The notes beneath the pieces are model-generated. The model saw only the letters and a program-made list of their open reading frames with translations. It searched no databases and was not told the origin of the DNA. DNA of 64,000 nt from Candidatus Dojkabacteria bacterium (lineage in GTDB: Bacteria; Patescibacteriota; Dojkabacteria; B142; WJKM01): assembly GCA_014729085.1 (NCBI GenBank), contig WJKM01000008.1, positions 163 through 64,162 on the forward strand, in the 5' to 3' direction. The translations under genes were made by a program, and so were the position numbers. Shown piece after piece: positions 1 to 42,581 of this stretch. Every line of letters begins with the position of its first letter. Position 1 is the first letter of the stretch.

Positions 1-153
1 ATAATTTGATTGACTTGCTTCACTTTTATCTGGAGCTTTACTTTCTCTAATGTTGTAAAGGATTCCAAATGTCAATAAAATTGTAACAAAAAGGATTATA
101 AAGATGAATACCACTTTTTTATTACTATTTTGAACTGTGAGAGAATTTTTCAT
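1..153 (-). CDS. N-terminal fragment of a membrane-anchored secreted protein (signal-anchor, then a KSEAS motif); the 3' part lies beyond the window
   Basis: Reverse complement of 1-153 is one open frame: MKNSLTVQNSNKKVVFIFIILFVTILLTFGILYNIRESKAPDKSEASQSNY. It has a basic N-terminus, a TM helix and the same post-TM SEAS motif seen in 176..1327 and the 39922-43289 family. The ATG is at 153..151. Confidence 0.4.
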   Translation of the reverse strand, partial: MKNSLTVQNSNKKVVFIFIILFVTILLTFGILYNIRESKAPDKSEASQSNY

Positions 154-175
154 AATTTAAAATTTGAATATTTAC

Positions 176-1327
176 TTAACAACCATTTTTATATTTGTCT
201 ATAAAATTTTTAAAGTCATTTATGTCAATTATTTCATTCTCATCAGTATCTTTACTGCCACAATCTCCTATAGCTGTAGTATTACTACATGATTTCCCAT
301 ATAGTTCTTTAAAAGAGCTAAAGTCCGTAATATCTACCTGGAAATTTGAGTTTGTATCTATTGGACCACAACTGGGTTGAAGATTACTAGGTGAAGGAAT
401 GATAGTTGCTGAAATTACTTCTGTTTGTGTTAGGGTTGGAGTATTTGGTTGGGTTACAGTTGGATCTGTTGTAGTTCCAGTATATTCCATCTTTGCGATA
501 ACTGGAAAGTGGTCAGAGGATTTCATATTGTGATCAATATAGGCTTCAACCACCTTCCATTCTGAATTCTTTGAAACAAAAATATGATCAATTGTGGTTG
601 AATTTTCTCCTTTGCCACCGGATAGCTTATGCCATACCTCATCATTTACGCTATCTGTACATTGATCTGCTAATACTGGATTACATGCCTCGTAGAAATT
701 GGTTAAAAAGTTAGTGTAACATGAGGCTTTTTCGGACATATTAAAATCACCCAATAGAAATTTATTGTTGTTTTCATAATTCTTTTGAATTTTCAGTAAT
801 TCAAGATTACTTTTACATGGGTTTTTTGTGTTTGGGTGTATATTAAATAATCTTACTATATGTCCGGAAGGAAGAGTAACCTGGAAAGTCATAATTCTAC
901 GATCTTGAGCATCTGAATACGTTTGATAGTCTTCTATTGGGTAACGGCTAAAAATTGCCATATAATCTAATTCTTGTTTGGAGTTCATCTCCCACCCTTT
1001 TTCCTTTAATTGTTTTTTTAAAGTTTTATAATTATTGTTTGTATATATTTCCTGCATACAAATAAAATCTGGTTGTTTTGAGGCTATGTAATCAGTAATT
1101 TCATTCATTCTTTGTTCCAACTTTTTATAAAGTACATTGAAAGACATGAGTGTTATTTCCTCTTTTGCGAAGGAGTCTGATGCCTCACTTAATTCCGGAG
1201 CAGTTGATTGGTTTCTAATACTTTGGGAAATAAGTAAGATAATAATTAGTAAGGCTATTAATAAAAATACTATTAAAACTGAAGAACCCATTCTTTTTCT
1301 ATTATATTTATTAAAAGAGTTCATCAT
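176..1327 (-). CDS. Secreted endonuclease/exonuclease/phosphatase (EEP) family protein with a C-terminal Cys-bracketed dockerin-like double EF-hand module
   Basis: N-terminal TM anchor. The EEP hallmarks are present (ITLMSFNVL, LGDFNMSE, SDHFPVIAKMEY). The C-terminus reads CGPIDTNSNFQVDITDF...CGSKDTDENEIIDINDFKNFIDKYKNGC, i.e. two DxNxNxxxDxxD calcium loops. Confidence 0.6.
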   Translation of the reverse strand: MMNSFNKYNRKRMGSSVLIVFLLIALLIIILLISQSIRNQSTAPELSEASDSFAKEEITLMSFNVLYKKLEQRMNEITDYIASKQPDFICMQEIYTNNNYKTLKKQLKEKGWEMNSKQELDYMAIFSRYPIEDYQTYSDAQDRRIMTFQVTLPSGHIVRLFNIHPNTKNPCKSNLELLKIQKNYENNNKFLLGDFNMSEKASCYTNFLTNFYEACNPVLADQCTDSVNDEVWHKLSGGKGENSTTIDHIFVSKNSEWKVVEAYIDHNMKSSDHFPVIAKMEYTGTTTDPTVTQPNTPTLTQTEVISATIIPSPSNLQPSCGPIDTNSNFQVDITDFSSFKELYGKSCSNTTAIGDCGSKDTDENEIIDINDFKNFIDKYKNGC

Positions 1328-1788
1328 TTACTTGTACAATTATTTAGTTTATTCATTCTTATAAATTCATGTAGGTCGACTATGTTGATTCGTCCATTTG
1401 AATCAGCATCTTTGGGTCCGCAACCGTTATATTTTGGTATGTCAGAACAAGTTTTCTGATATACTTTAGTGAAATTGGTAAAATCGTCCAGATCTATTTT
1501 TTCGTTTTGATTTTCATCAATTGGGCCACAAAGTACTTTTTTTTCTATAATTTCTCCACTTTGATCTAAAATTTCACCACTTTCAGAGAGTAAGTGTTTA
1601 TTAAAAGTATTGTCTATAGAGGCTAGATTTATATTTTCTGATACTTTGATTACTTCGTCTTCAACCTGCCTATTTTTTTTCATAGTTATACTCATAACTA
1701 TTGCAGGTAAACAAATTACTAAGGTAATCAATAAGCTTAAAGCTGGTTTTTTTAATTTCTGTTTTTGATTTTTCGTGAATTTGAACAT
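1324..1788 (-). CDS. Small membrane-anchored protein made essentially of a dockerin-like double EF-hand module
   Basis: N-terminal TM, then CGPIDENQNEKIDLDDFTNF...CGPKDADSNGRINIVDLHEFI. There is a 4-nt ATGA start/stop overlap with 176..1327, suggesting translational coupling. Confidence 0.5.
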   Translation of the reverse strand: MFKFTKNQKQKLKKPALSLLITLVICLPAIVMSITMKKNRQVEDEVIKVSENINLASIDNTFNKHLLSESGEILDQSGEIIEKKVLCGPIDENQNEKIDLDDFTNFTKVYQKTCSDIPKYNGCGPKDADSNGRINIVDLHEFIRMNKLNNCTSK

Positions 1789-1818
1789 AAACTTATCGTA
1801 TTATATTAAAAGCCGTAA

Positions 1819-3057
1819 CTAATCGCATCCATGTTTATATAAATTAATAAAATTTTGGAAATCTATGATATCAATCAAACCGTTTCCATCCGAATCTTTA
1901 CTTCCGCAACCTCCGATTTGAATTGTATCAGTGCAGTTCTTTCCGTATATATTTTTAAAGGATTCAAAGTCTGTTATATCTACTTCAAAATTTGAATTTG
2001 TATCTATTGGTCCACATGTTTGCCCAATAACAGTAGGAACCGGTGAGGAAGTTTCAGTTGGATTTAAAGATGAAGTTGGTTTTATACTTGAAGTTGGATT
2101 TAAAGATGAAGTTGGTTTTGTACTTGAAGTTGGACTTTGAGTTATTGTATTAGTTGGGCTTGTTGTGATGGAGTTTATTGAAAATCTTCCAATTACTGGG
2201 TAATGGTCAGAAATTTTTTGGTTGTAATCTGTTTTTACTTCGATTACTTGTAAGTTCGTATTATGGAAAATATAATCAATTGCATATCCTCCGGAACTGG
2301 GATCCCCTACAGTTACTTCACAAGTCTTATTGCTAGATTGAGTACATGCATCTGTATAAAGTTTAGATAATTCTGGATAACAATATCTATCTTTTGTGAA
2401 GTTATAATCTCCAAGTATAAATGTATTTCGATCTTGATATTGTTTAACTACTCCCTTAAATTGATCAAAATAATCGTGATCCTTATTACAAGCTGGTACT
2501 GGGTGAGGATGATGATTAATCACCCATATATTGTTTCCTGAATTAGGGCTAATTTTGGCAGCTTGAATTACATGTTGTTCTCCACCGTAGGGAGAATCAA
2601 AAATATAGTTTTTATGATCAAGAATTGGGTATTTACTAAATATCGCATTGGATAGTGTTATTCCATCAATTTTAAGATTTTTCCTTTTTTTTACAATCAC
2701 ATACATCGGATAATTTTTTTCCTCTAATTTGGGTATTAGAAATTCATTTAAAGGTTTCCCATCTCTATCAAAAGGAAATTCTTGGAAGCCAATAATATCT
2801 ATTTCATTGTTAATAATGTAGTCGGCAAGCCCGTTAATATAGTTAGCATAATTTTTATTTTGTGTGGGATGCGAAACACGTAGATTAAATGTCATAAATG
2901 TTAGTTCATTTTCTTTGTTTTCTGAAGCTTTATCTCTAAAATCTAAGTTTTGCCTAGATATTTGATTAGCAAAGACTATGAATATTAAAAGGATTATGAA
3001 TAGGCCTAAAACTATAAATGATTTATATTTGGATTTTATACTATGAATCGTTTTCAT
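1819..3057 (-). CDS. Secreted EEP-family nuclease/phosphatase paralog with a Ser/Thr/Pro linker and C-terminal dockerin-like module
   Basis: EEP motifs are LTFMTFNL, GFQEF, LGDYNFTKD and SDHYPVIGRF. The linker is TSSLNPTSSIKPTSSLNPT. The C-terminus reads CGPIDTNSNFEVDITDFESF...CGSKDSDGNGLIDIIDFQNFINLYKHGC. Confidence 0.6.
   Translation of the reverse strand: MKTIHSIKSKYKSFIVLGLFIILLIFIVFANQISRQNLDFRDKASENKENELTFMTFNLRVSHPTQNKNYANYINGLADYIINNEIDIIGFQEFPFDRDGKPLNEFLIPKLEEKNYPMYVIVKKRKNLKIDGITLSNAIFSKYPILDHKNYIFDSPYGGEQHVIQAAKISPNSGNNIWVINHHPHPVPACNKDHDYFDQFKGVVKQYQDRNTFILGDYNFTKDRYCYPELSKLYTDACTQSSNKTCEVTVGDPSSGGYAIDYIFHNTNLQVIEVKTDYNQKISDHYPVIGRFSINSITTSPTNTITQSPTSSTKPTSSLNPTSSIKPTSSLNPTETSSPVPTVIGQTCGPIDTNSNFEVDITDFESFKNIYGKNCTDTIQIGGCGSKDSDGNGLIDIIDFQNFINLYKHGCD
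2057..2137. repeat. Near-perfect 36-bp tandem direct repeat (2.25 copies, 1 mismatch) encoding the SSLNPTSSIKPT linker of 1819..3057
   Basis: Units at 2057-2092 and 2093-2128 differ at a single base; a partial third copy runs 2129-2137. The repeat is in frame (12 aa per unit). Confidence 0.7.
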
Positions 3058-4171
3058 ATTGTAATTTAATACTATCTATGGTTTTTTGAAAGTACGTTAG
3101 GTTGTGGATACTTGCTAGCCTCCAACCAACTGCATCGTTGATTTTTATAAGGTGTCTTAGATAGGCCCGAGTAACAGTTGAGCAACATTCACATTTACAA
3201 TTTGGATCTACAGGTTTATTTGAAAACTTATATCTTTTGCCTTTAATGTTTAAAACAGAATAATTATTAAAATCCTTATTTCCATGTCCTTTAGAAACAT
3301 ATAAGTATCCATGCCGTCCATTTCTTGTTGGTAAAACGGTATCAAAAATGTCCCATCCGACTTTTGTTGAAAAGATCATGTCGTCGGGTGACCCCACTCC
3401 CATAGCATATTTTATTTTATCATCAGGGATTAAATTAGACACATATTCCAGCATTTCATGATGAAATCCGCGAGGAGCATTTGAACGCCAGTCCTTTTCT
3501 TTATGGATTGGAGGTCCACCAAAGTTATAAAGATCAAAGCCAATTGAAAGAAGTTCTTCTGCACTTTGTTTTCTGAGATCTTTGTTGTTCCCACCTTGAA
3601 TAACAGCTCCTATTAAAGGTCTTTTAATTTTAGGATTATTAAAGTCTTGCTCGGTTAAATGATGTAGTTCGAGAAACTTGTCTTTTGATCTTTTAGCCCA
3701 TTGAGTATTTCTTTTTATAGCCTGTTTGAGCTGGGAGGTGGGGGCATCATGTTGAACAGGAACGTCCAATACAGTTACGATATCTGTTCCTAAATTGAAC
3801 TGTATAATCTGAGATATTTCAGGACTTAGAAAGTGGTATTTACCATTTTCTGGGTCTATAAACGAGCAACCCGCATCAGTTATTGCATTCTTATTGCCTG
3901 GCCTTCTATAAATTAAAGAGAATACCTGGTATCCTCCGCTGTCGGAAAGAATTGGTTTATTCAATCCAAAGAAGCCATGTACTCCTCCCATCTGATCTAT
4001 GTATTCACTTCCTCTCTTTTGTTCAAGATGCAAGGTTGTAGTAACAATTTGATTGGTGCCTGTTTTTTCCAAATCATCCCATGTTAATGCTTTTATAGTT
4101 CCATAAGTCGCATCTGGAAAGAAGGCCGGTGTTTCAATTTTTCCATGATTAGTATGAATAAATTTTTTCAT
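3041..4171 (-). CDS. tgt: Queuine tRNA-ribosyltransferase (tRNA-guanine transglycosylase)
   Basis: TIM-barrel TGT-like sequence with the C-terminal zinc site CKCECC...H (CxCxxC-x-H) and a typical length of 376 aa. The 3' end overlaps the start of 1819..3057 by 17 nt. Confidence 0.85.
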   Translation of the reverse strand: MKKFIHTNHGKIETPAFFPDATYGTIKALTWDDLEKTGTNQIVTTTLHLEQKRGSEYIDQMGGVHGFFGLNKPILSDSGGYQVFSLIYRRPGNKNAITDAGCSFIDPENGKYHFLSPEISQIIQFNLGTDIVTVLDVPVQHDAPTSQLKQAIKRNTQWAKRSKDKFLELHHLTEQDFNNPKIKRPLIGAVIQGGNNKDLRKQSAEELLSIGFDLYNFGGPPIHKEKDWRSNAPRGFHHEMLEYVSNLIPDDKIKYAMGVGSPDDMIFSTKVGWDIFDTVLPTRNGRHGYLYVSKGHGNKDFNNYSVLNIKGKRYKFSNKPVDPNCKCECCSTVTRAYLRHLIKINDAVGWRLASIHNLTYFQKTIDSIKLQYENDS

Positions 4172-9209: not shown

Positions 9210-10514
9210 TTATTCCAGTTTTTTACCGAGTAATTTTCTAAACTTAAGCATGGCTGTATAAGTAGGCAATACAAAAATTGTGTCATTATTATTTGCATTA
9301 TTAAAGGATTTTTCTATACATTTGTTAATATCTTCATCTAGAAAATATTCGGAATATTCATTTAGAGCATATTTAAGCCTTACCTGTAAATCCTTTGCTC
9401 GTGTACCGCCTAAAATCATCCACGTTATATCAGATTTATTTAATAACTCAAATCTAGCATCCCATATCCAAGAAATATCTTTCCCATCAGCTGTGTTGTC
9501 ATTTAAAAGTAAAATCAGTTTTAAATTCTTAACACTTCGAATCAAATCAAGATTAAGACTATAACCCGCAGGGTTCTTGACAAGAAGCATTCTAAAATTT
9601 ACTGTTTTTTCTTTATCCTTTTTAGTAATTAGTTCCCCTCGTCCGAATGCCGGATTAAATTTATTTATTCCTTTCTTTATAATATTATTTTTAATGTCAA
9701 GCAGTTTTGAAACAGTGATTGCAATAAGAACATTATAAACATGAAAATATCCGTATGCATTTAAAGTTTGAGTGTCAAATTTTATTTGTTTGTTATTGAT
9801 TTTGCCTAAAACTTCAAATTCTGAAGTAAGATTAGGTGTAACTTTTAGATTTTTTGCTTTTATATAATTTGGTACTTTGGATTTTTGTTTTGTTCTTTCT
9901 CCCTCGTACGGTAGTTCTTTAGAGAATTGATCTGGTAACGAAACATAATATGTATCATTAGGTAGTTTTTTTGTTAACTGTGAAGTTCGGGGATCGTCAT
10001 AATTTAAAATTATTTTTGCATTCGGACATTGTTCGATACCCTTTCTAATATATTTTTGTGTAATGTCTACTTCTCCATAGGCATCTAATTGATCTCTATA
10101 TAGATTTGTAACGGCAATAATCTTAGGATTTAGAACTTTGGCTATTTTTGGTAAAGTACCCTCCTCTATTTCAAAAACAGCATGTGTGCAATCAATTTTT
10201 CCAGTCAAACTGCATTGTTTTAAGATCTCTGAAAGTATTCCTCTACTTAGATTTGCACCTGCAGAATTTATAATGATATTTATGTCCGCTTCCTTGAAAA
10301 TTGAATTTAAAAGGGTTTGCGTTGTTGTTTTTCCATTTGTCCCAGTAATAATAATAATGTTTGGAATTTGACTTACTAGTTTTTGTAAAGTCCTGGGAAA
10401 ATATTTTTCTATAATTCTACCAGGTAAAGCTGTTCCGGAGCCTTCACCGGTGACTTTAAGAAACCAAGTAAGTATTTTCGAAAAGATTATTATAGGTATT
10501 AGTGTTAAGTACAT
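9210..10514 (-). CDS. murT: Mur-ligase-family lipid II isoglutaminyl synthase subunit MurT
   Basis: Mur ligase P-loop ITGTNGKTTTQTLL, followed by a C-terminal DUF1727-like region. It is paired with gatD. Confidence 0.7.
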   Translation of the reverse strand: MYLTLIPIIIFSKILTWFLKVTGEGSGTALPGRIIEKYFPRTLQKLVSQIPNIIIITGTNGKTTTQTLLNSIFKEADINIIINSAGANLSRGILSEILKQCSLTGKIDCTHAVFEIEEGTLPKIAKVLNPKIIAVTNLYRDQLDAYGEVDITQKYIRKGIEQCPNAKIILNYDDPRTSQLTKKLPNDTYYVSLPDQFSKELPYEGERTKQKSKVPNYIKAKNLKVTPNLTSEFEVLGKINNKQIKFDTQTLNAYGYFHVYNVLIAITVSKLLDIKNNIIKKGINKFNPAFGRGELITKKDKEKTVNFRMLLVKNPAGYSLNLDLIRSVKNLKLILLLNDNTADGKDISWIWDARFELLNKSDITWMILGGTRAKDLQVRLKYALNEYSEYFLDEDINKCIEKSFNNANNNDTIFVLPTYTAMLKFRKLLGKKLE

Positions 10515-10616
10515 CTAATTTATTAATTTACAATAAATAATATTATACTTGTTTATTGTAACAGATAGTATGAAAATTCTTACGAAATTTATTAAGATTT
10601 AGGTTGTTTGAAAGTA

Positions 10617-11699
10617 TTATTCGTTTATGGTTGTAAAATTGATAGTAGGTGTAATGCTATCGGGAACCTCTTTACAGTATAAAGTTTCGGCAACTTCGAA
10701 TCCAGGCCTATAATTTAAATAATTCCTCCATTCTGCTGCTTCTCTTACAAATTCACAACGATTTTCGGGATTGCATAAATCATTTGTAATTAAATTTGAA
10801 GGTCCCAAAGCTCTCATATCTTCTTCGGTCAAGTAGCATAGTGTATGAAAATCAATTAATCCGTTTTCTGCAGTTATAAGTTCTTCATTTAAAACAACAG
10901 TTGCTAAGCCTAGTAATTCTTGCAATTGTGCATCTGAAAAAGTTTCGGAGTTTATTAGTACTTCTGTTTGGTCTGGTAACAAATTTTCAATATAGGATTG
11001 AAGTGCATCTGAATTTTCAGTTCCAAGATTTGCTAATGTTGTAAGATAAATTGCAAATAATTTGGCATCTTCTGGATCTTCTAGTGTAAAGGGCCTTAGA
11101 TAACTCTGAAGTTCAGTTTCAAATACTCCTGCGTTCTCTGTTGCTTCCATATATGTTCCGTAGGTTTCTTTAGCGAACGTAGCCGTAATTTCATTGTTTT
11201 CTGTTTCTTCCCAAACCCCTACGTGGTCAAAAATTATTCCTAACGGATCGGAATTAACATCCTCTTCTCCATAGCCAAATGGGGTATAAGTTGCATAACT
11301 TCCTTCTGGATCTAGATATCCGTCCCAATAGACATTATCTGGGAGTTGAGCATCTTCTCTGCCAAGTGCACATTTTGCGAATTCTGCAGTAAGGTCATAA
11401 CTTGGAACTCCAGTGTTTTCTCTATCAGCTATAGTTGTAATTATGTTTAAATATGATGCATCAACATAAGGATTAGAGCAAGGTTCACCTAAATTGGACA
11501 TAAATTCCTCTATTGGGTTAGGTGTTGGAGCCGTTTCTATTTCTACTGGTTCGGGCGATATAGGTGCAGAAGTCGATCTAGAGTCTTGAGTTTCTAATGC
11601 TTCTGAGGTCATAATCCCCTCACCAGCGCAAGCCAATCCTAGGCTAGATAAAAGAATTACCCATAATATTTTATTATCTAATAATTTTTCTTGTTCCAT
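10617..11699 (-). CDS. Secreted hypothetical protein (probable lipoprotein), acidic
   Basis: N-terminus is MEQEKLLDNKILWVILLSSLGLACAGEG, a signal peptide with a lipobox-like LAC. No catalytic motif recognised. Confidence 0.5.
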   Translation of the reverse strand: MEQEKLLDNKILWVILLSSLGLACAGEGIMTSEALETQDSRSTSAPISPEPVEIETAPTPNPIEEFMSNLGEPCSNPYVDASYLNIITTIADRENTGVPSYDLTAEFAKCALGREDAQLPDNVYWDGYLDPEGSYATYTPFGYGEEDVNSDPLGIIFDHVGVWEETENNEITATFAKETYGTYMEATENAGVFETELQSYLRPFTLEDPEDAKLFAIYLTTLANLGTENSDALQSYIENLLPDQTEVLINSETFSDAQLQELLGLATVVLNEELITAENGLIDFHTLCYLTEEDMRALGPSNLITNDLCNPENRCEFVREAAEWRNYLNYRPGFEVAETLYCKEVPDSITPTINFTTINE

Positions 11700-11795
11700 A
11701 GTGTTTATGCTAAATATATCCTTATTATATCTTGGTGGTTTTTATACTTTCAATTTGTTTGCATATTTGTAAACATAGTTTTAATAAGAAATAAA

Positions 11796-11822
11796 AAAGG
11801 GAGCCATTGGCTCCCTTTTAAG
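11796..11822 (-). terminator. Rho-independent terminator for 11838..12656
   Basis: Minus strand reads GGGAGCCAATGGCTCCC (7-bp GC-rich stem, 3-nt loop) followed by TTTTTTATTT. Confidence 0.6.
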
Positions 11823-11837
11823 TGTGAATCTCCTATA

Positions 11838-12656
11838 TTATTTCGTTTTATTTGTTAATGATTTGGTTAAGAAATTACTTAAAGTTTTCATATAGGAGTC
11901 TACCGGATAGTCTTCAGAATCTAATGGGTTTGTTCTTTCTTCTAATTCATCACCATCTTTAAATCCATCTCCGTCGGTATCCGCTAACGTTGGATCAGTA
12001 ATGTATCTGGCCCATGGTACAATATGCCCCCCTGTATGTCCTTCTTCACCATGATTAACCCAAGTTCCTTGTACCATTTTTCTAACCCATTCTACCTCTT
12101 CATTATCATCAATTCTGTCATTATCGCTATCTTTATCTTCTGGATCAGTACCTATTGCAACTTCATATCCATCAGGTAACCCATCTTCGTCAACATCTGG
12201 GTTGTATTCATCGGGATCTTCAGTTCCGATCAGTCCGTCTCTGTCATAATCTTCAGAGCTGGCATTTGGGTTGTTTGGATTAGTTCCTGCACGTAATTCA
12301 TCACCATCACTTACTCCATCCCCGTCACTATCCCATTTCAACGGATCAGTAATATATCTGGCATCTTCAACAAATCTACCGTCTACTGGTGTTCCGTTTA
12401 GTATCTTTTTATCCCAAAGTAATTCATCCCCATCAGTAATTCCATCTCCATCAGTATCAGGGTTTTCAGGATCAGTACCTATTGCAACTTCATATCCATC
12501 ACAAAGTCTGTCGCCATCTGAGTCCCAGTTGTTTGGATCTGGGTCTACCTCATTTAGTAAACCATCTAGATCATGATCAGTCGGCTGATAGGTTGGATCG
12601 TTGGTTGGAATATTTTCTAGTCTCCATTGCCACTGTGGTATTGGTAAATCCTCCAT
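11838..12656 (-). CDS. Thrombospondin type-3-like (TSP3) acidic calcium-binding repeat protein
   Basis: Many DxDxDGxxDxxE repeats ([48 protein letters not shown]). No N-terminal signal peptide in the called ORF. Confidence 0.6.
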
Positions 12657-12802
12657 TGTAATTAAAATTAAAAATTAAACTATGCTTTAATCCTAAATAT
12701 AGATATAATTGTTAGTAAATTAATTAAACTTAATATTATAGGATTATTAGATATATATCTATTCTATAGGTTTTTTTTAAGATCTTAAAATAGTTTGCAA
12801 AA

Positions 12803-13627
12803 ATGCACATAGACGCAATTAAAAATTTTCTTGAAAAGCTTGGACTTTCACAAGATGAAATTAAGATTTATCTAACATTGCTTATAAAAGGAAATTTATC
12901 AGTTTCTTCCATATCTCAAGAAAATAAAATTGAAAGAACAAAAGTTTATAGAATACTGGATAAGTTAATAAGTAAGGGATTTATCAATAAAATAGCCACT
13001 GAACTTGGAGATCTATTTCAGCCGGCTGGTTTTGAGGCTATTAAGTTAGCCGTATTAGCTAGAGAAAAAGAATTAGAGAGTCTTAAAGCGGAATTTTCAA
13101 ATTTTAAAAAGGATATAGAATTAGCTCAGAAAGCAGAAAAGACAATAGGTACAGATGTTAAATTTTATATGGGGAAGAGGGGAATAAAACAGATGGTTTG
13201 GAATGTAACTAAAGCAAATACTGAAATAAAAAAAATATTAAATAAAACGGCAATTAAATTTCTTGGTAAGAACTTCTGGAATGAGTTTCGAAATGCAAAT
13301 AGAATAAACGGACAATCTGCTCGAGCTCTTTACTCCAAGGAATACCTGGATAGTCTAGGTGAATTAAAAGCTGAATATACAGACGAAATGGTTGCACATT
13401 CAATACACCAAACTTACAAGTTTCTTCCCAAAGAAGTATTTGAAATTCGAAATTATGTTTTTCTATACAATGATAAGGTTGCAATCTTTAATTGGAGTCA
13501 AAACGAAATTTATGGAATAGAGATAAAGAGTAGAGATGTTTCTACCATGCTGAATCAAGTTTATGAGATGCTTTGGAATATTGCAGGCGAGGAACATACA
13601 ATCGATAAGATTTTAAAACAAGTATAG
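12803..13627 (+). CDS. TrmB-family transcriptional regulator (paralog 1 of 3)
   Basis: N-terminal wHTH reads IKIYLTLLIKGNLSVSSISQENKIERTKVYRILDKLISKGFINKI. The conserved C-terminus is VAIFNWS...IYGIEI. Confidence 0.65.
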   Translation: MHIDAIKNFLEKLGLSQDEIKIYLTLLIKGNLSVSSISQENKIERTKVYRILDKLISKGFINKIATELGDLFQPAGFEAIKLAVLAREKELESLKAEFSNFKKDIELAQKAEKTIGTDVKFYMGKRGIKQMVWNVTKANTEIKKILNKTAIKFLGKNFWNEFRNANRINGQSARALYSKEYLDSLGELKAEYTDEMVAHSIHQTYKFLPKEVFEIRNYVFLYNDKVAIFNWSQNEIYGIEIKSRDVSTMLNQVYEMLWNIAGEEHTIDKILKQV

Positions 13628-13661
13628 ATTATTTAATCATTATAAATTTAACAATATAAAT

Positions 13662-14489
13662 ATGCACCTAGATAAAGTAAGAAGTTTTCTAGAAAAGTTA
13701 GATTTAACTCATGAGGAAATAAAAATTTATTTAGCTTTGATTAAGCATGGGAATCTTTCCGCATCAGATTTGTCCAAGGAAACTAAGGTAGAAAGAACCA
13801 AAGTTTATCGTTTGTTGGATGATTTAATCGGGAGGGGTTTTGTTAATAAAATTGGGACTGAATCAGGTGATGTATTTCAAGCAGAAGGCGAAGAGTCCGT
13901 TAAATTAATTCTTTTAGAAAAAGAAAGAGAGTTAGAAAATTTAAAAAATTCTTTAGATGCAGTACAAGAAAATTACAAACTTCTTAAATCGGGAAGAGAA
14001 ATCAAAACAGATGTTAGATTCTTTATGGGTAAACGTGGTGTAAAACAAATGGTTTGGAATGTTACGAAAGCTAAATCAGAAGTTCGTAAAATGTTAAATA
14101 AAACTGCTTTAAAATATTTTGGACGAAAGTTTTGGAAGGAATATAAAAAGTCGGTAAAAAAGGGAGGACAACAGCATAAAGCATTATATTCAGAAGATTA
14201 TATCGAAAGTTTAAAAGGATTTAAGATCCAAAGTATTAAGCAGCAGGTTGTATCTCCTGAATATCAAACTTATAAATATATTTCAAAAGAATATCTGGAA
14301 ATTAACGATTATATATTAGTTTATGATAATAAAGTTGCTATTTTTAATTGGAGTGATGTTCATATTTATGGGATTGAGATATTAAGCGAAGGATTTGCTG
14401 CAATGCAGAAGCAGATGTTTGATATCTTATGGAATATGGGAAAAGAAGAACATAAGTTGGATAAAGTTCTAGCTAAAATTGAAGATTAA
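13662..14489 (+). CDS. TrmB-family transcriptional regulator (paralog 2 of 3)
   Basis: Clear paralog of 12803..13627 along the whole length (MHLDKVRSFLEKLDLTHEEIKIYLALIKHGNLSASDLSKETKVERTKVYRLLDDL). Confidence 0.65.
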   Translation: MHLDKVRSFLEKLDLTHEEIKIYLALIKHGNLSASDLSKETKVERTKVYRLLDDLIGRGFVNKIGTESGDVFQAEGEESVKLILLEKERELENLKNSLDAVQENYKLLKSGREIKTDVRFFMGKRGVKQMVWNVTKAKSEVRKMLNKTALKYFGRKFWKEYKKSVKKGGQQHKALYSEDYIESLKGFKIQSIKQQVVSPEYQTYKYISKEYLEINDYILVYDNKVAIFNWSDVHIYGIEILSEGFAAMQKQMFDILWNMGKEEHKLDKVLAKIED

Positions 14490-14543
14490 TAAAAACGAGA
14501 GCTTCAAAAGCTACTTTTTTTATCTATTTTTTCTCAAATATTA

Positions 14544-15083
14544 TTAAAAGCTGTTTGGATCAAGAGGATTTGTTTCATTATTTTTTTCTTCCTTGTCAGA
14601 TTTTCCGTCTCCGTCTGTATCATAGAGAGTTGGATCAGTATATACGTTAAAAATAGGACTTTGATATCTAACTTCGTCTCCATCAGTAATTCCATCTCCA
14701 TCTGTATCTGGATTTGAAGGATCGGTTGGTGAGAAATGTTTCCATATTCTTTCTCCAGCAGAATCGCGCCAACCTAGGTCTATAATACCGAAGTATTCGT
14801 CTTGATTATGTAAACCATCAGCGTCAGGGTCGTCTAGTAAGCCATAGTCAAGATTCCCAAAGTATTTAAGTTCCCATGAATCTTTAAGTCCATCGCCATC
14901 ACTATCAACATTGGCTCTGAAGTTTTCCACTGTGGCAGTCAAATCGGGGGTTGGTAATGGAGTTTCTGTTGGATCTTCAGTAGCTAGGGGAGTTTCAGTA
15001 GTAGCTCCAGTTGTACATCCTGCTATTAATAGTAATGATGCAAGTAAAGCGCTCCCCCATACTAATTTATTTTCCTGTTCCAT
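14544..15083 (-). CDS. Lipoprotein with TSP3-like calcium-binding repeats
   Basis: [26 protein letters not shown] has lipobox IAGC. Acidic repeats [24 protein letters not shown] and [12 protein letters not shown] follow. Confidence 0.6.
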
Positions 15084-15288
15084 AGTAAAAAATATTAAAA
15101 AATTAAATTATTATAAGTCTTATTGGTATATAAACATTCTATAAAGAAAGTTTGTTTTAATAAAACTGTTCACATTATTGTGTACACATGAATTTGCTGG
15201 GCTTGGGTAGTAGATTTGAGGAATTATTTCTTTATAAATTAATCTAGGGTATAATTTGTGATATATAAATATAGTTACACAATGGGAT

Positions 15289-16122
15289 ATGCATATAAAC
15301 ATTATTACTAGATTTCTAGAAAATTTAGATTTATCTAAGGAAGAAATCGAGGTATATGTTACCTTGCTTGATAATCCAGATATTTCTATTTCAGATTTAT
15401 CCCATGAACTAAGTATTAATAGATCAAAAGTATATAGAACACTGGATAGCCTTATTAATAAAGGATATGTGAATAAAGTATCATCGGAAAGTAAGGATTT
15501 ATTTAAAGCCAGAGGTTTTGAGTGTATAAAGCAGGCAGTATATGAAAAAGAAAAAGAGGTCGAAGCAATGAAAGAAGAATTAAACAAGATTGAACAGAAT
15601 TTTCAGTTGTTCGGATCAGGGGCAGATTTAAATATAGATGTAAAATTTTACCAGGGAAAACGGGGTATAAAACAGATGTATTGGAATGTCGCTAAATCCA
15701 AAACTGAAGTAAAAAAAATTTTGAATAAATCAGCTATTGGTTTTTTAGGAAGGCAGTATTGGGAAGATATGGTAAAGGAGCAAAAGTTAAATCAAACACA
15801 AATAAGGGTATTGTATTCCGAGAGTTTTTATAATTCAATAAAAAAAATAGATAAACAAAATTTCCGAAATTACTTTGCTCCTCCTAGCTTACAGACATAT
15901 AAATTTCTTCCAGAAGAAGTATTCAAGATAGAGAATTACTTCATATTATATGAAAATAGGACTACCGTGTTTAATTGGCATGAGAGAAGCATTTATGGGA
16001 TAGAAATTTTAAATCCGGAAGTTGCATCAATGTTATCGCAGATGTTCGACATCTTATGGAATATGGGAGGTAAGGAACATACAATTGAAGATTTGGAAAA
16101 AAGAATACTTCAAGAAAATTAG
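15289..16122 (+). CDS. TrmB-family transcriptional regulator (paralog 3 of 3)
   Basis: Paralog of the two upstream TrmB-like genes (EIEVYVTLLDNPDISISDLSHELSINRSKVYRTLDSLINKGYV). Confidence 0.65.
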   Translation: MHINIITRFLENLDLSKEEIEVYVTLLDNPDISISDLSHELSINRSKVYRTLDSLINKGYVNKVSSESKDLFKARGFECIKQAVYEKEKEVEAMKEELNKIEQNFQLFGSGADLNIDVKFYQGKRGIKQMYWNVAKSKTEVKKILNKSAIGFLGRQYWEDMVKEQKLNQTQIRVLYSESFYNSIKKIDKQNFRNYFAPPSLQTYKFLPEEVFKIENYFILYENRTTVFNWHERSIYGIEILNPEVASMLSQMFDILWNMGGKEHTIEDLEKRILQEN

Positions 16123-16123
16123 A

Positions 16124-19100
16124 TTAGATTTGATACTTTTTAATTATCTCCATTAGTTTAGCACTTGGCTTAATTTTTTTAACAATAGCATTTCTATTAG
16201 TGACACTACCGTATATAATTTTCAACGGAGTTTTTCCTTTATTCTGTATGATTAGTTTCTTGAGTTCCTCAATATTATTTTGGTCTTTTTCGTTGATGAT
16301 ATTGATGGTTATTGTCTTTGGATTCTTAATTTTATTTGCTTTATTTGCATCTTTTACAATCAAACTCAGTGATCCTTTCCGTTCATTTACGCGAACTGAA
16401 AGTATAAGAGGGGTAAATTCAGGTAAGTTATCTATCAATCTTTCGTAGGTTTTGGGAAACACTACCCCGTCTACATGTTCTAAAAGTCCTTCGATTCTTA
16501 CAAAAGCCATAGCTTTGGATCCTTTTTTAGTAAAAATAATTTTTTTGTCTGTAATCATTGCAAGTACTTTAGTGTCTCTTTCCTTGGAGGATTTCATTAC
16601 TGTTTCTATGGTTTCAATACTAGGGTTAAGAGCTTTGTTAAGATGTTTTTCCAAGGGATGATGAGATAAAAATGTTCCAAGAAGTTCTTGTTCCCATAGA
16701 ATTTTCTCCCTGTCTGTTTCAAGTTCAATTCCTTTTGGAAAGGGTGTAGCTTTAACTTCAGGTTCTTCGCCACCATTCATTAATGTAAATATTCCGGTTT
16801 GTCCACCTAATGCTCTTCGTTCATCATTTTGGATTTTTTCAAATACATCTGGAATAACTGCTAATAATTGTTTTCTTGCTCCAAATTGGTCCATAGCGCC
16901 TACTTTGGTTAAATATTCCAAATCTTTTTTTGTGATTTTTGAGGTCCCTACTCTTTTAATAAGATCATCTAAGTGTTTATACTTACCGTTTTTCTTTCTT
17001 TCATCTACTATGTTTTGCATGATTTTTTCACTTGTATTTTTTATAGCTCCCAATCCAAATCTTATAGATTTATTTTTTTCAATTTTAAAGTCAACATAAC
17101 TTTCGTTTATATCTGGGGATAATATGGGAATGCCCATTTCTTTAGCTTCGTTTAAATCCCTTGAGATTTTATCTGAGTTTCCTAAATCCGTCTGCATAAT
17201 TCCTGCCATAAATTCGAGTGGATAATGGGCTTTTAGATATGCTGTTTGATATGAAATTAACGAATAAGATGCTGCATGAGAACGGTTAAAACCATAATCA
17301 GCAAATGGTTCTAAATACGCAAATACTTCTTTGGCTAGTTTTTTTGAGTGTCCGTTTTTCTGTGCTCCTTGTATAAATCTTTTCTTTTCTTTTTTCATTA
17401 TTTCTGGTTTTTTCTTTCCCATAGCACGTCTTAACATATCTGCTTGCCCAAGGCTATATCCAGCAAATTTTACTGCTATTTCCATTACCTGTTCTTGGTA
17501 GATTGCGAATCCATAGGTGGATTGTAAAATCGGTTCTAAGTCTTCATGTAAATAGGTTACTTCTTGTTCTCCTTGTTTTCTTTTAATATAGTCAGGAATA
17601 TATTCCATAGGTCCTGGCCTATAAGCTGATGTCATGAAGAAAAGATCCTCCATTTCTGTTGGTTTTAAATCTCGGAGATATTTTTTCATACCGCTTGATT
17701 CGAACTGGAAAATCCCTGTTGTATCTCCCCTCTGGAATAATTCAAAAGTACTTTTATCATCTAAAGGGATGGAATCAATATCTATTTTTTTATTTTGAGT
17801 ATATTCTATTTGTTTCAGAACATTTTTTATAATTGTAAGGTTGGCAAGACCTAAGAAGTCAAACTTCATTAATCCCATATATTCTGCTACCCAACCTTCG
17901 ATTTGAGTAATAATTCTATCGCCTCCCTTAGTTTCTCTTTGTACAGGAACATAGTCTGTAACGGGATTGGGAGTTACTAGATAACCGCATGCGTGAGTGG
18001 AGACATGTCGAGCTACATTTTCAAGTTTTCTTACATACCCAGCTAACTCTTGTAGTTCTGGGGATGCTTCGATCATTTTCTTGAATTCAGGGACTTCTTC
18101 CATCATTTTGTCTATTGAATAAACCCGGCCAAATTTTACAATCACCATCTTGGAAAGTTTATCTGCAATATCTAGCTCTATACCCATTACTCTTGCTACA
18201 TCTCTTATAGCAGCCTTAGTCTTTAATCTACCAAAAGTCCCTATAAAAGAAGTATTTTCTTTTCCATAAGTTTTAGACATATATTCAAAGAGATCATCTC
18301 GTCTATCATCTTGGAAATCTATATCAAAATCGGGAGGTGAATTCCTTTCAGGATTTAAAAATCTTTCGAAGATAAGATTCCATTTTAGTGGGTCTATATT
18401 TACTATTCCTAAGACATAAGCAACCAGACTTCCGGCACCAGATCCTCTTCCGGGACCAATCAAAATATTCTGGTTACGAGCCCATTTGCAGTAGTCCTGA
18501 ACAATTAGGAAATAATCGTCATATCCTTTTTGGTCAATAATTTCAAGTTCATAGTCTAATCTCTGTTTAATTTCTTCAGATAAATCACCATATTTTTCTT
18601 TAGCTTTTTGATATGTCATTTCTTTTAGATATTGTTTTGCTGTTTTGTTTTTTGGGAGAGCATAATATTCGGGTTGAATACGATCAAATGTTATGTCATA
18701 TTTTTCGACCATCTCAGCTATTTTATTGGTGTTTCTAACAGCATCAGGAATATCTGAAAATAAATCATACATTTCCTTGGGGGATTTTACATAGAATTCT
18801 TTAGAGTCGTATTGTCTTCTCTCAGGATCGGTAAGTAGATTTCCATCGGAAATACACCATGCAATTTCTTGTATTTTCCAATCCTCTTTATCCAGATAAT
18901 GAGAATCAACTGTAGCAACGTAAGGGAGATTAAATTTATTTATTAATTCAAATTGTTTTTTCTCCAATCCTTCTAGCTCTTTAATATTGATCCTCATAAG
19001 TTCAAAATAGAAATCATCAAATTCATTTCCTAAGAAATTTACCCAGTTTTCAGCTTCTTCCTCATTACCATTCAACAGAGCTTGATTAATTGGACTACCT

Positions 19101-26243: not shown

Positions 26244-27653
26244 ATGGCTAAATTGTTTTCTAAGAAAAAGACAAGTCTAATTTTAACTATGTTTTTAGTT
26301 ATTTTTTCAGTATTGATTGTGTTTGTTCTAAGCAGAAGAAACAAGGAGTTAAATACTAGGACAAACGCCTCAAATCAACTATCAAATTATATTATTCCAA
26401 AGAAAGTATATGTGTTGATATATAATCCAACTTTACAGCTGGAAGGTAATCCTACTCTTGTAGAATTTAAAAATTGGAATAATCCTAATGAACTAGTCCA
26501 ACAACTTGAGAATTGGTTTTTGGTCACTTCCGAAGAAAGAGTTCGTTATAACATAGTCTCTATCGAAGAAATTGATGCTATCCCTATCAAAGAAGATGGA
26601 TTTGAATATACTCAAGCTTCCTATTTAGAATGTTTAGAGGACGAAACTGAGTGTCACAAACCGGACATAGCAGATTATTCGGAAATTTTTAATAATAATT
26701 CTATATGTGAAAAATTTAATAACGGTGAGTTTGATGAATTATGGATGATTGCAGGTCCGTGGTTTGGATTTTATGAATCTAGACTAACTGGTCCAAATGC
26801 ATTTTATTATAATTCCCCTCCATTAAGAGGCACAAGTTGTAATAAACTTTTACCAATTATGGGTTTTAATTATGAAAGAGGTCTTGAGAATATGGTTCAT
26901 GATTATGGACACAGATTAGAGGATACGATGAAAAAAGTATATGGTTCATGGGATAGAAATTCATCAGCACATAATTGGAACAAGTTTGCATTAGTTGACT
27001 CCCAAGCTAATAGTTTTGATTTTAGTGGATGCGGTTTCTGTCATTTTCCACCTAATGCTATTGATGATTATGCTTATTCAGACACGAGAAACGTAAGATC
27101 TTATTGTAATCAATTTTACAATTATCCCAATTTGGACAACTTGAGTGATAATACAGATACTATTTCCTGCGATGTTTGGGGTTGTAATGAACTTGGATAT
27201 TTTAGATGGTTGTTTAGGCATATGCCGAAATATCAAGGCTATGGTCCAGATAAAAAATTAAATGATTGGTGGATGTATCTTATTGATCCCAATATTGTTC
27301 TTACAAACATAGTCCCAGATTATTGCCCAACTATTACTCCTACTCCTACTCCTACTAAAACTGCAACTAGTAGTCCCGTGATTACTGGTACCTCTACAGA
27401 AGACTCGACGCCTACAGAAGATCCGGAAACAACTATTACATATATTCCTACTTCAACTGAAATGGTTACAGAATCACCTATTGATAAAAAATCTGATTTT
27501 AACAAAGATGGAAAGGTTAATATAGTTGATTTTAGAATATTTATCGAATGCTATAAAGCTGAAACTTCGGAATGTGATTTAAATCGGGATACAAAAGTTG
27601 ATCTATATGATTTTGTTGAATTTCGCATGGATTATCTTCAAGAAAATAGTTAA
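26244..27653 (+). CDS. Membrane-anchored secreted protein with Thr/Pro linker and canonical C-terminal dockerin
   Basis: TM anchor and an unknown ~320-aa domain, then linker TITPTPTPTKTATSSPVITGTSTEDSTPTEDPETT. The dockerin reads DFNKDGKVNIVDFRIF...DLNRDTKVDLYDFVEF, a textbook DxNxDGxVNxxD pair. Confidence 0.55.
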   Translation: MAKLFSKKKTSLILTMFLVIFSVLIVFVLSRRNKELNTRTNASNQLSNYIIPKKVYVLIYNPTLQLEGNPTLVEFKNWNNPNELVQQLENWFLVTSEERVRYNIVSIEEIDAIPIKEDGFEYTQASYLECLEDETECHKPDIADYSEIFNNNSICEKFNNGEFDELWMIAGPWFGFYESRLTGPNAFYYNSPPLRGTSCNKLLPIMGFNYERGLENMVHDYGHRLEDTMKKVYGSWDRNSSAHNWNKFALVDSQANSFDFSGCGFCHFPPNAIDDYAYSDTRNVRSYCNQFYNYPNLDNLSDNTDTISCDVWGCNELGYFRWLFRHMPKYQGYGPDKKLNDWWMYLIDPNIVLTNIVPDYCPTITPTPTPTKTATSSPVITGTSTEDSTPTEDPETTITYIPTSTEMVTESPIDKKSDFNKDGKVNIVDFRIFIECYKAETSECDLNRDTKVDLYDFVEFRMDYLQENS

Positions 27654-39921: not shown

Positions 39922-40896
39922 ATGAAATTTAAATTCACAAATATTGGTGAAGATAGAAAAAGTAAACAGAAGTTAATTGTTGTTCTACTTTTATGTTTTC
40001 TTTTTTTAGTAATTGCCAATTCTATAGTTTTTGTTAGCAACTACTCAAAATATACAAGAACTGAAAAAACAGAAGCTTCCGATATAGAAAGTAAGTATTG
40101 GAATCATGATTTGTTTGATGGGCGATTGGAAGCGGTAAGCTGTGAACGTATAGTTGGATGGATAGGAACTAAAGATGATTTGATGGCACAGATGCCAGTT
40201 TTTTTTACTATAGGAGGTCCTTATGAGGGAAATGGAGTTGTGTTTAATCCCAATACAATAGCAGATATAAAACGAGAGAAAGCTGTATGTGATTTTTTGG
40301 ATGGTACTCTTAGTATGGCTGAAGAATGTGTTACCTGCGAAGGTACATCTTGTAATCATGGGTTCGAAATCAATCTTCCCAATTATACCGACTCTCCAAT
40401 TTTTAATAATAGCTCTAATAATAAGGTTTACGCTTATGGTGTTTATAAAGGACAAATTGCAGCTATTATGGATGGTCCTAGTTTTTCAAAATTTTTTCTT
40501 GAAATTCCGGAAAATTGTGGCGATGGATGGGATGGAAATTCAGATGAAATACCTACTTATACTGAAACTCCTACACCAGGCCCGGTTGAAATTCCCGAGG
40601 GCGTTAATTTTGATTTTAATTTAGATACTTTGATTGATCTGAATGATTTTACTTTATTTGCAAATGGTTATAGGGAGTGTAACAAACCGGATAATCCTGA
40701 CTCACAAAATTCTCCCGAATGCGAAATGTATAAAAGTACAGATGCTACTTTTGATTTCGATTTTAATGATGATCAAAAAGTTGATTTGAATGATTTCGTC
40801 ATTTTCGCACAAGTATATAAAGTTTGTAATAAACCAGGAGATACAGCAGCTCAAGACTCGACAGATTGTAATCAATATAAGGGAGGAGATAACTGA
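39922..40896 (+). CDS. Membrane-anchored secreted protein with C-terminal dockerin-like double EF-hand module (family member 1)
   Basis: TM, then the NYSKYTRTEKTEAS motif and an unknown ~190-aa domain. The dockerin-like part is DFNLDTLIDLNDFTLFANGY...DFNDDQKVDLNDFVIFAQVYKVC. Confidence 0.55.
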   Translation: MKFKFTNIGEDRKSKQKLIVVLLLCFLFLVIANSIVFVSNYSKYTRTEKTEASDIESKYWNHDLFDGRLEAVSCERIVGWIGTKDDLMAQMPVFFTIGGPYEGNGVVFNPNTIADIKREKAVCDFLDGTLSMAEECVTCEGTSCNHGFEINLPNYTDSPIFNNSSNNKVYAYGVYKGQIAAIMDGPSFSKFFLEIPENCGDGWDGNSDEIPTYTETPTPGPVEIPEGVNFDFNLDTLIDLNDFTLFANGYRECNKPDNPDSQNSPECEMYKSTDATFDFDFNDDQKVDLNDFVIFAQVYKVCNKPGDTAAQDSTDCNQYKGGDN

Positions 40897-41174
40897 TATA
40901 ATTCGATAAAATATTTATTGAAATTATTAGAAAAAAAAGGATTATTTTTACTAATCATAAACCAATTTAACCAACAACTATATTTTACTGATCGCAAATG
41001 CAATGTCTGGATTTCTAATAATACTGTGTAAATTATAATTTTTGGGGGTCCTAGTGCCGTTTTAAGATTAGAAGTTCGATTTGCTTACCTGTAGGTAGAT
41101 TGACCTACCGGAGAGGTACAATTGGACAATCTGATTTGAGAGAGGTATATATTTTTATAAGTAGAGTATAAAGT

Positions 41175-42566: not shown

Positions 42567-42581
42567 ATTATTTATTGATTA

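Follow-up and report, generated by a model that had tools for sequence, protein, structure and literature searches.

The 64,000-nucleotide stretch of contig WJKM01000008.1 from a Candidatus Dojkabacteria bacterium analysed here (the window; G+C content ~30%) opens with a tight, co-oriented run of minus-strand genes at positions 1..4171. The run comprises tgt, which encodes a tRNA-guanine transglycosylase, EEP2, a gene for a 154-residue protein referred to as mini, and EEP1. EEP1 and EEP2 encode EEP-fold enzymes, and these two enzymes and mini share a cysteine-containing C-terminal module that is the subject of this report. The open reading frames (ORFs) given in a preliminary description of this DNA were all confirmed (Table 1). 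A partial fifth ORF (153..1) specifies an N-terminal hydrophobic segment of the same kind as those of EEP1, mini and EEP2. GenBank entries MBD3362488.1 and MBD3362489.1 match EEP1 and mini exactly, and MBD3362530.1 is likewise identical to a third window protein; all three entries come from a Candidatus Dojkabacteria bacterium, lie on a 64,577-bp contig and are labelled 'hypothetical protein'.

The shared module occupies the last 64–66 residues of EEP1, mini and EEP2, with 42–65% identity to the copy in EEP1. The modules of EEP1 and EEP2 are 65% identical, versus 33% for the whole proteins (BLASTP, E = 1e-63), which bears out their description as paralogues. A fourth copy terminates a BNR-repeat protein elsewhere in the window. 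Alignment of the four modules revealed 24 invariant columns, including four cysteines (C1–C4) and two D-x-N-x-N/D-x(3)-D-x(2)-D-F loop–helix units, with a loop-to-loop spacing of 36 residues. The cysteine and two-loop pattern first reported for three proteins is thereby upheld with the fourth copy included. It lies far beyond chance, since, of 1.84 billion cluster representatives screened with a profile built from the four modules, only 308 scored at E ≤ 1e-3 (81 at E ≤ 1e-10).

Table 1. Features of the minus-strand gene run and of the fourth module carrier in the window.
Feature	Description	Coordinates	Strand	Basis
tgt	tRNA-guanine transglycosylase, 376 aa; first gene of the co-oriented run	3041..4171	-	Pfam TGT 5.7e-94
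EEP2	412 aa; hydrophobic N-terminus, EEP domain, Thr/Pro/Ser linker, four-Cys module	1819..3057	-	ORF + Pfam
EEP2 N-terminal hydrophobic segment	aa 14-30, after a Lys-rich stretch; putative signal peptide or anchor	2968..3018	-	translation
EEP2 catalytic domain	aa 55-285; motifs N, QE, H, GDYN, IDY, SDH	2203..2895	-	Pfam Exo_endo_phos 8.5e-15
EEP2 linker	Thr/Pro/Ser-rich	2017..2178	-	translation
EEP2 module	C348/C375/C384/C411	1825..2016	-	alignment; 87.4 bits to family profile; AF2; fold matches
mini	154 aa; hydrophobic N-terminus (aa 15-35), ~50-aa spacer, module only	1324..1788	-	ORF
mini module	C87/C114/C123/C151	1336..1530	-	alignment; 93.1 bits to family profile
EEP1	383 aa; architecture as EEP2	176..1327	-	ORF + Pfam + BLASTP
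EEP1 catalytic domain	aa 61-273	509..1147	-	Pfam Exo_endo_phos 1.5e-14
EEP1 module	C320/C347/C356/C383; last Cys is the protein end	179..370	-	alignment; 83.4 bits to family profile
Partial fifth ORF	MKNSLTVQNSNKKVVFIFIILFVTILLTFGILYNIRESKAPDKSEASQSNY...; co-oriented, start at 153, leaves the window	1..153	-	translation
BNR-repeat protein	sialidase-like, 597 aa; fourth module carrier	46385..48178	-	Pfam BNR_4 8.7e-14
BNR-repeat protein module	C532/C559/C568/C596	46391..46585	-	96.7 bits to family profile

An AlphaFold2 (AF2) model of the EEP2 module, computed from 40 family sequences, was obtained with a pLDDT of 90.2 and a pTM of 0.77. It superseded a model from four sequences (pLDDT 70) whose structural matches were a non-significant mixture of dockerins and EF-hands. 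The later model contains helices at residues 19–27 and 55–64 only, each following a calcium loop, and no entering helices. In a Foldseek search with this model, 14 of 15 matches were dockerins, the best being B. cellulosolvens 2Y3N_B (E = 0.03, probability 0.99); the modelled structure resembles solved dockerins in three dimensions, its two best structural matches being 2OZN and 2Y3N.

Sequence conservation in the loops points the same way. Asp occupies loop position 1 in 168/169 and 166/167 repeats and position 12 in 165/169 and 167/167 repeats, positions 3 and 5 are Asn or Asp, and position 9 is mostly Asp, Asn or Thr. Asp at position 12 is the habit of dockerins, and Glu that of EF-hands. 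The putative calcium-ligand positions 1, 3, 5, 9 and 12, with Asp at 12, are thus those expected of a dockerin. The same holds for the tandem loop-plus-helix (F-hand) pair without entering helices, seen in both the alignment and the AF2 model, and for the C-terminal placement after a flexible linker on putatively secreted modular proteins. On this evidence, the module very probably adopts the dockerin fold. Alignment, predicted structure and fold matches all agree with the dockerin-type module of two calcium-loop/helix repeats named in the preliminary description, and the loops would presumably bind calcium. The dockerins of fungi (Neocallimastigomycota) likewise serve secreted enzymes as small docking modules with disulfides, but have an unrelated fold that lacks EF/F-hand calcium loops; only the name and the use of disulfides are common to them and the window module.

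The module differs from the solved dockerins (PF00404: C. perfringens NagH 2OZN, B. cellulosolvens 2Y3N, and the type I dockerins of C. thermocellum and C. cellulolyticum) in its four near-invariant cysteines, which lie at position −3 of each loop and ~12 residues past each loop end. C1 sits exactly at −3 of loop 1 (C-G-P-I-D1) and C4 at the C-terminus. C3 sits at −3 of loop 2, and the distance from C2 to helix 1 equals that from C4 to helix 3, giving an internal two-fold symmetry. In an 'intramolecular clasp' of dockerins, residues −3 to −1 before loop 1 contact C-terminal residues (Slutzki et al. 2013, PMC3821032). This non-covalent clasp, present in 2OZN and 2Y3N, is needed for the stability of the calcium-bound fold and for cohesin binding/surface (PMC3821032).

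A C1–C4 disulfide is favoured because the clasp of solved dockerins joins the two places where C1 and C4 sit. A C2–C3 disulfide is favoured because the internal symmetry places C3 at −3 of loop 2 and C2 past helix 1; furthermore, C2 and C3 can be regarded as an independent pair, as variants exist that have only their equivalents, namely the window protein at 26244..27653 and an Anaerohalosphaeraceae sequence (L013). The pairing C1–C4 plus C2–C3, a clasp and a linker staple, consequently appears more likely than the C1–C2/C3–C4 bracketing of each loop that had been proposed. The window module resembles the known clasp in the positions of C1 and C4; unlike it, the window module's clasp would be a covalent disulfide and would be duplicated by symmetry at the second repeat. 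The DSSP bridge pattern was rejected as an arbiter of connectivity, because both pairings fit the internal symmetry. A Zn(Cys)4 site was judged unlikely, as dockerin geometry would put the cysteines in two separated pairs. Variants at window positions 39922..43289, which also speak for C2 and C3 as an independent pair, have a local C-x13/14-C hairpin after each helix.

Both enzymes belong to the EEP fold, as had been claimed, with 54.7 and 55.5 bits to Pfam Exo_endo_phos (PF03372; cut-off 24.5) for EEP1 and EEP2. Word-indexed homologue searches gave only 10 distant EEP proteins for EEP2 and no match for the module alignments. The catalytic residues of both enzymes were checked in an alignment with 10 distant homologues and a Dojkabacteria relative. 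None of the canonical positions is missing, and all are invariant across 12 homologues (alignment numbering): Asn (N9), Gln-Glu (Q37-E38), His (H109), Gly-Asp-x-Asn (G138-D139-x-N141), Asp (D192) and Ser-Asp-His (S216-D217-H218). Four further cysteines are invariant in the catalytic domains of all three Dojkabacteria sequences, which is consistent with extracytoplasmic folding. The Dojkabacteria enzymes share all catalytic motifs and full-length profile matches with the EEP superfamily (3TEB, 3G6S, beta-hemolysin, exonuclease III). They differ from it in reaching no subfamily threshold and in adding the four conserved cysteines, an N-terminal export segment, a Thr/Pro linker and the dockerin module.

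On sequence grounds, EEP1 and EEP2 are EEP-fold phosphodiesterases, for which nucleic acids, phospholipids and other phosphoesters are candidate substrates. Nuclease activity is a reasonable guess; the label 'nuclease' given to them earlier went beyond this. When a profile of the three Dojkabacteria EEP domains was compared with solved structures, the best matches were two uncharacterised EEP proteins from structural genomics, 3teb (4.5e-11) and 3g6s (5.1e-9), followed by S. aureus beta-hemolysin, a sphingomyelinase C (6.9e-6), and ExoIII (~2e-4), a mixed set with weak scores. It is possible, though doubtful, that the enzymes are instead membrane-active phosphodiesterases resembling sphingomyelinase C or phospholipase C, or phosphatases, with lipids or glycans of a host or of the environment as substrates. 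Beta-hemolysin/sphingomyelinase C ranked first or third among the solved-structure matches, beside uncharacterised EEP proteins, and mannosyl-6-phosphatase and other non-nuclease EEPs were also among the matches. Scores to the ExoIII equivalogs TIGR00633 and TIGR00195 likewise fell far below the cut-offs (EEP1, 38.1 versus 99.05 and 33.7 versus 182.55; EEP2, 16.4 versus 99.05). Yet among NCBIfam models EEP1 is most similar to those of the ExoIII and YafD types, and another member of the module family bears a bona fide non-specific nuclease domain (Endonuclease_NS), placing nucleases among the cargo. Moreover, de novo nucleotide synthesis is generally missing from bacteria of the candidate phyla radiation (CPR), so that scavenging of nucleic acids is plausible.

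Two EEP-plus-module genes also occur in another Dojkabacteria metagenome-assembled genome (MAG), HKST-UBA11, where each sits on a contig of its own. One is far closer to EEP2 (E = 8.6e-52, versus 6.1e-19 to EEP1) and the other to EEP1 (E = 5.4e-26, versus 2e-09 to EEP2). Because this genome has separate EEP1-like and EEP2-like genes, the duplication is judged from sequence to be ancient. The EEP1-like gene of HKST-UBA11 (L029 118..1353) is split in two adjacent frames, 118..468 and 472..1353, either by a frameshift, as a pseudogene, or through an assembly error.

The wider family was surveyed for placement, hydrophobicity and copy number in the best 150 of the 308 members. In 140 of these, no more than 12 residues separate the module from the C-terminus; 105 have an N-terminal hydrophobic stretch and 15 carry two to four module copies. 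Where aligned, the cysteines are retained at C1 in 165/166, C2 in 169/171, C3 in 165/166 and C4 in 105/105 cases, counts that are somewhat biased by ascertainment, the cysteines being part of the query profile. Whole-protein scans of 108 members revealed varied N-terminal domains, including beta-helix, BNR, EEP, Endonuclease_NS, GDSL lipase, trypsin, glycoside hydrolase, polysaccharide lyase and many of unknown kind. To judge from these architectures, the lineage uses the module as a general address tag at the C-terminus, borne by nucleases, BNR/sialidase-like proteins, lipases, proteases, beta-helix lyases and unknown domains. In the same scans Pfam Dockerin_1 matched 27/108 members (E < 1e-3, best 1.3e-11) and EF-hand_1 matched 17/108. 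Precomputed Pfam annotation was empty for two other family members, and all members with a named source are from Candidatus Dojkabacteria.

When 185,579 species genomes were scanned with a hand-built, degenerate DNA pattern of the second repeat, 28 loci were identified. High-scoring four-Cys loci (44–87 bits, all but two above 60) lie in MAGs labelled Candidatus Saccharibacteria or Candidatus Dojkabacteria, and one is labelled 'uncultured bacterium'; CPR members overall score 44–99 bits to the four-Cys profile, mostly above 60. Matches from Planctomycetota/Phycisphaerae reach only 17–28 bits and represent a different cysteine-containing dockerin type, with a Cys after helix 1, 'GC' before loop 2 and a Cys after helix 3, the equivalents of C2, C3 and C4. 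Given these separate score ranges, the Planctomycetota and CPR types are distinct subfamilies at the sequence level. It is assumed that the Planctomycetota type is probably what NCBIfam NF041540 ('GC-type dockerin domain-anchored protein') models; this curated dockerin variant resembles the window modules, matching them and 11/108 relatives (dockerin_GC) weakly. Three (near-)consecutive genes of 629, 732 and 990 codons, each ending in a four-Cys module, occur at 9995..18364 of a contig of JGI metagenome 3300044712 (L031). These three genes within 21 kb indicate that clustering is not unique to the window.

The four-Cys module defines a coherent subfamily, with a CPR subtype that is apparently undescribed and mostly unannotated. 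A literature search found no papers on a 'GC-type dockerin' and no description of the four-Cys subtype, and dockerins in Dojkabacteria were met only in CAZyme counting. The suggestion that the module is not a described family therefore needs amending: it belongs to the dockerin superfamily, in which NF041540 already exists, and what stands is the apparent novelty of the CPR four-Cys subtype. The module is a largely unannotated, probably disulfide-bearing subfamily of a known fold and not a new kind of domain.

Dockerin-like modules are present in eight of the ~60 genes of the window, four being of the four-Cys type (83–97 bits to the family profile). The other four proteins (26244..27653, 39922..40896, 41175..42566 and 42582..43289) score 10–28 bits. 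The secreted 469-residue protein at 26244..27653 (+) carries a short-linker dockerin that exceeds the Pfam Dockerin_1 threshold (24.0 versus 22.9 bits) and has only a C2/C3-like cysteine pair ("...FIECYKAETSEC-DLNRD..."). Its 400-residue N-terminal domain has no Pfam family, and close homologues of that domain (E ~1e-81 to 1e-84) bear the four-Cys module, which implies an exchange of dockerin subtypes on one and the same cargo. The adjacent secreted, Cys-rich proteins at 39922..40896, 41175..42566 and 42582..43289 (+) have a second dockerin-like subtype with loops of the form 'DFDFN.D..(I/L/V)DL.DF' and C-N-(K/S)...x13-14...C after each helix. In two of the three this module is internal, not C-terminal, and no Pfam dockerin match was found for it.

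All eight of these window proteins begin with a Lys/Arg-rich N-terminus followed by a hydrophobic segment of 17–23 residues. The hydrophobic N-terminus, catalytic domain, Thr/Pro/Ser linker and C-terminal module agree with the secreted, tethered architecture that had been described, export being putative. The mini protein was considered as a lipoprotein (LVIC) and rejected on its sequence, its lipobox being atypical. The EEP2 linker contains a 36-bp tandem repeat at 2056..2134 (2.2 copies, 97% matches; Tandem Repeats Finder), and the mini spacer a 21-bp repeat at 1544..1583 (1.9 copies); these repeats suggest length-variable tethers. At least five secreted window proteins have a '(K/E)-x-(S/T)-E-A-(S/A)' motif ~12–15 residues past the hydrophobic segment, within the N-terminal 40–55 residues: EEP1 (aa 46–50), the partial ORF 153..1 and the proteins at 39922, 41175 and 42582. 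In the wider module family only 4/138 proteins have this motif, which may be a processing site fitting the −3/−1 rule.

It is proposed, with moderate confidence, that the EEP paralogues and mini are exported by Sec and carry a dockerin-fold, disulfide-clasped C-terminal tag that holds the enzymes at the cell surface. In this model, EEP1, EEP2 and mini would cross the membrane via Sec, and the catalytic domain and module would fold oxidatively outside the cell. The module would form two loop–helix F-hand sites related by internal two-fold symmetry, with two Ca2+ bound. Two symmetry-equivalent disulfides, a covalent clasp and a staple across the inter-repeat linker, would lock this calcium-bound fold outside the cell. 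By analogy with dockerins, the module would hold the enzyme, on its flexible Thr/Pro/Ser linker, to the envelope or to a host receptor; candidate receptors are a cohesin-like protein, another envelope component or the host surface. The EEP enzymes may then hydrolyse phosphodiester substrates for scavenging, with mini acting as an adaptor, competitor or anchor.

Points against this proposal are given in this and the next two paragraphs, along with a rival reading. A Pfam scan detected no Cohesin domain in 39 proteins of the 64-kb window, and none was found in 20 individually chosen family members (Pfam) or in the neighbourhoods of three relatives. Similarly, phmmer with an approximate cohesin probe sequence gave no match. 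It is rather unlikely, but conceivable, that the dockerin fold has no cohesin partner here and that its ligand is a glycan of the cell's own wall or S-layer, a polymer of the host surface, or the module itself; in the last case, membrane-anchored mini could be the receptor for the modules of released enzymes. Module-only small proteins with a hydrophobic N-terminus are common in the family, as this would lead one to expect. The Ser-Thr pair of clostridial type I dockerins comprises their cohesin-recognition residues, whereas the equivalent positions in the window module family are hydrophobic (I/L/Y then I/V/T). Further differences from solved dockerins are the sub-threshold Pfam scores of the window copies and the organisms that carry them, CPR bacteria that are ultra-small and not cellulolytic. 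For a dockerin-domain protein that is essential to an epibiotic Saccharibacterium grown in culture, host glycans have been proposed as the target (PMC10633639). Set against a cohesin-free ligand, 3/108 family members also bear Pfam Cohesin (best 7.3e-13), indicating coexistence somewhere in the family; the negative result covers only 64 kb of this genome, and the solved dockerins that match the module model bind cohesin.

Three further points bear on export, the disulfides and the locus. The hydrophobic N-terminal segments, at 17–23 residues, are long and could be uncleaved anchors. One relative, P0022, retains C1 and C2 and lacks C3 and C4, which fits bracketing of each loop by its own disulfide. 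Finally, tgt adjacency is absent at both EEP-plus-module loci of HKST-UBA11, and a functional tgt–EEP link through queuine or nucleoside salvage was rejected on this ground.

The remaining points concern the fold. Of the window modules, only that of EEP2 matched Pfam Dockerin_1 (16.1 bits; cut-off 22.9), with no match for EEP1 or mini. Scores to NF041540 (cut-off 29) were 19.3 for EEP1, 13.2 for mini and 19.5 for EEP2. The family profile matched EhCaBP at 2.5e-7, calmodulin at ~1e-5 and dockerin 5nrm_B at 1.3e-5. The Pfam dockerin/EF-hand profile check suggested for the three proteins is therefore formally negative, with no score at threshold, and because the window copies fall below the curated thresholds, the dockerin assignment rests on family-level matches and structure prediction. 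Similar dockerin and EF-hand scores are no surprise, since the F-hand of dockerins derives from the EF-hand loop, and sequence profiles alone do not separate the two for this module.

It is very unlikely that the module serves as an EF-hand pair that senses or buffers calcium and through which Ca2+ would regulate or stabilise the attached enzyme, with no role in docking: in common with EF-hand pairs (calmodulin, EhCaBP; PF13499), it has a DxDxDG-type 12-residue calcium loop, 36-residue loop spacing, comparable profile similarity, sub-threshold matches to EF-hand Pfam models (9.6–19.3 bits; cut-offs 25–30) and one relative named 'EF-hand domain-containing protein' in UniProt, but unlike them it lacks a helix before either loop, has Asp rather than Glu at position 12, shows another helix arrangement in the model and occurs as an extracellular C-terminal tag.

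The organisation of the run as a transcription unit was only partly as first described. The 3′ end of tgt overlaps the start of EEP2 by 17 nt, and the mini stop overlaps the EEP1 start by 4 nt, both as reported. The claimed 17-nt overlap of EEP2 and mini is wrong: a 30-nt spacer separates the EEP2 stop (1819) from the mini start (1788), and upstream of that start the frame of mini stays open no further than 1800, too short for any earlier start to reach EEP2. A sigma-70-like, promoter-like site lies upstream of tgt, and no terminator-like site was seen between the genes of the run; these features give weak sequence evidence for a single transcript of tgt, EEP2, mini and EEP1. The tgt product itself belongs to PF01702 over its full length (315.5 bits; cut-off 26.3) and scores 298.7 bits to NCBIfam tgt_general TIGR00449 (cut-off 47.6) and 303.2 bits to Q_tRNA_tgt, slightly below the cut-off of 306.75.

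Other genes of the window include one at 11838..12656 (-) with four bacterial thrombospondin type-3 repeats (TSP3_bac, 3e-25), whose product is a predicted extracellular calcium-binding protein. An FG-GAP repeat (integrin-alpha-like beta-propeller) protein at 45040..46320 (+; 1.2e-32) is convergent with the BNR-dockerin gene at 46385..48178 (-) and is a candidate surface protein. The adjacent ~275-residue proteins at 12803..13627 and 13662..14489 (+) have similar N-termini (MHIDAIKNFLEKLGLSQDEIKIYL... and MHLDKVRSFLEKLDLTHEEIKIYL...) and resemble the two copies of a tandemly duplicated HTH-type regulator.

CPR/Patescibacteria rely on other cells and have for the most part not been cultured, and little is understood of how they arrange their enzymes outside the cell or attach themselves to hosts. 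Hundreds of secreted proteins in Dojkabacteria and in Saccharibacteria-labelled MAGs, otherwise called 'hypothetical', bear the four-Cys form, and a dedicated four-Cys profile would in one step assign an annotation to a sizeable share of the CPR secretome. As a small, stable module it may also serve as a handle for fishing out its surface or host receptor, and a naturally disulfide-locked clasp offers a testable design principle for stabilising cohesin–dockerin parts. Non-cellulosomal dockerins, on which Peer et al. are said to have reported in 2009, have long been known; the present finding extends that picture and does not overturn it, the covalent clasp, the CPR setting and the absent partner being its noteworthy features. 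A bolder and improbable extension is that the four-Cys clasped dockerin is the address tag of a CPR-wide surface-display system without classical cohesins, in which candidates for the partner would be a module-only protein anchored in the membrane (the 154-residue mini, for example), an S-layer or pilus component, or the host surface. If this were true, the zone where ultra-small episymbionts touch their hosts would carry a 'scavenging coat', assembled by the episymbionts from phosphodiesterases, nucleases, sialidase-like enzymes, lipases and proteases.

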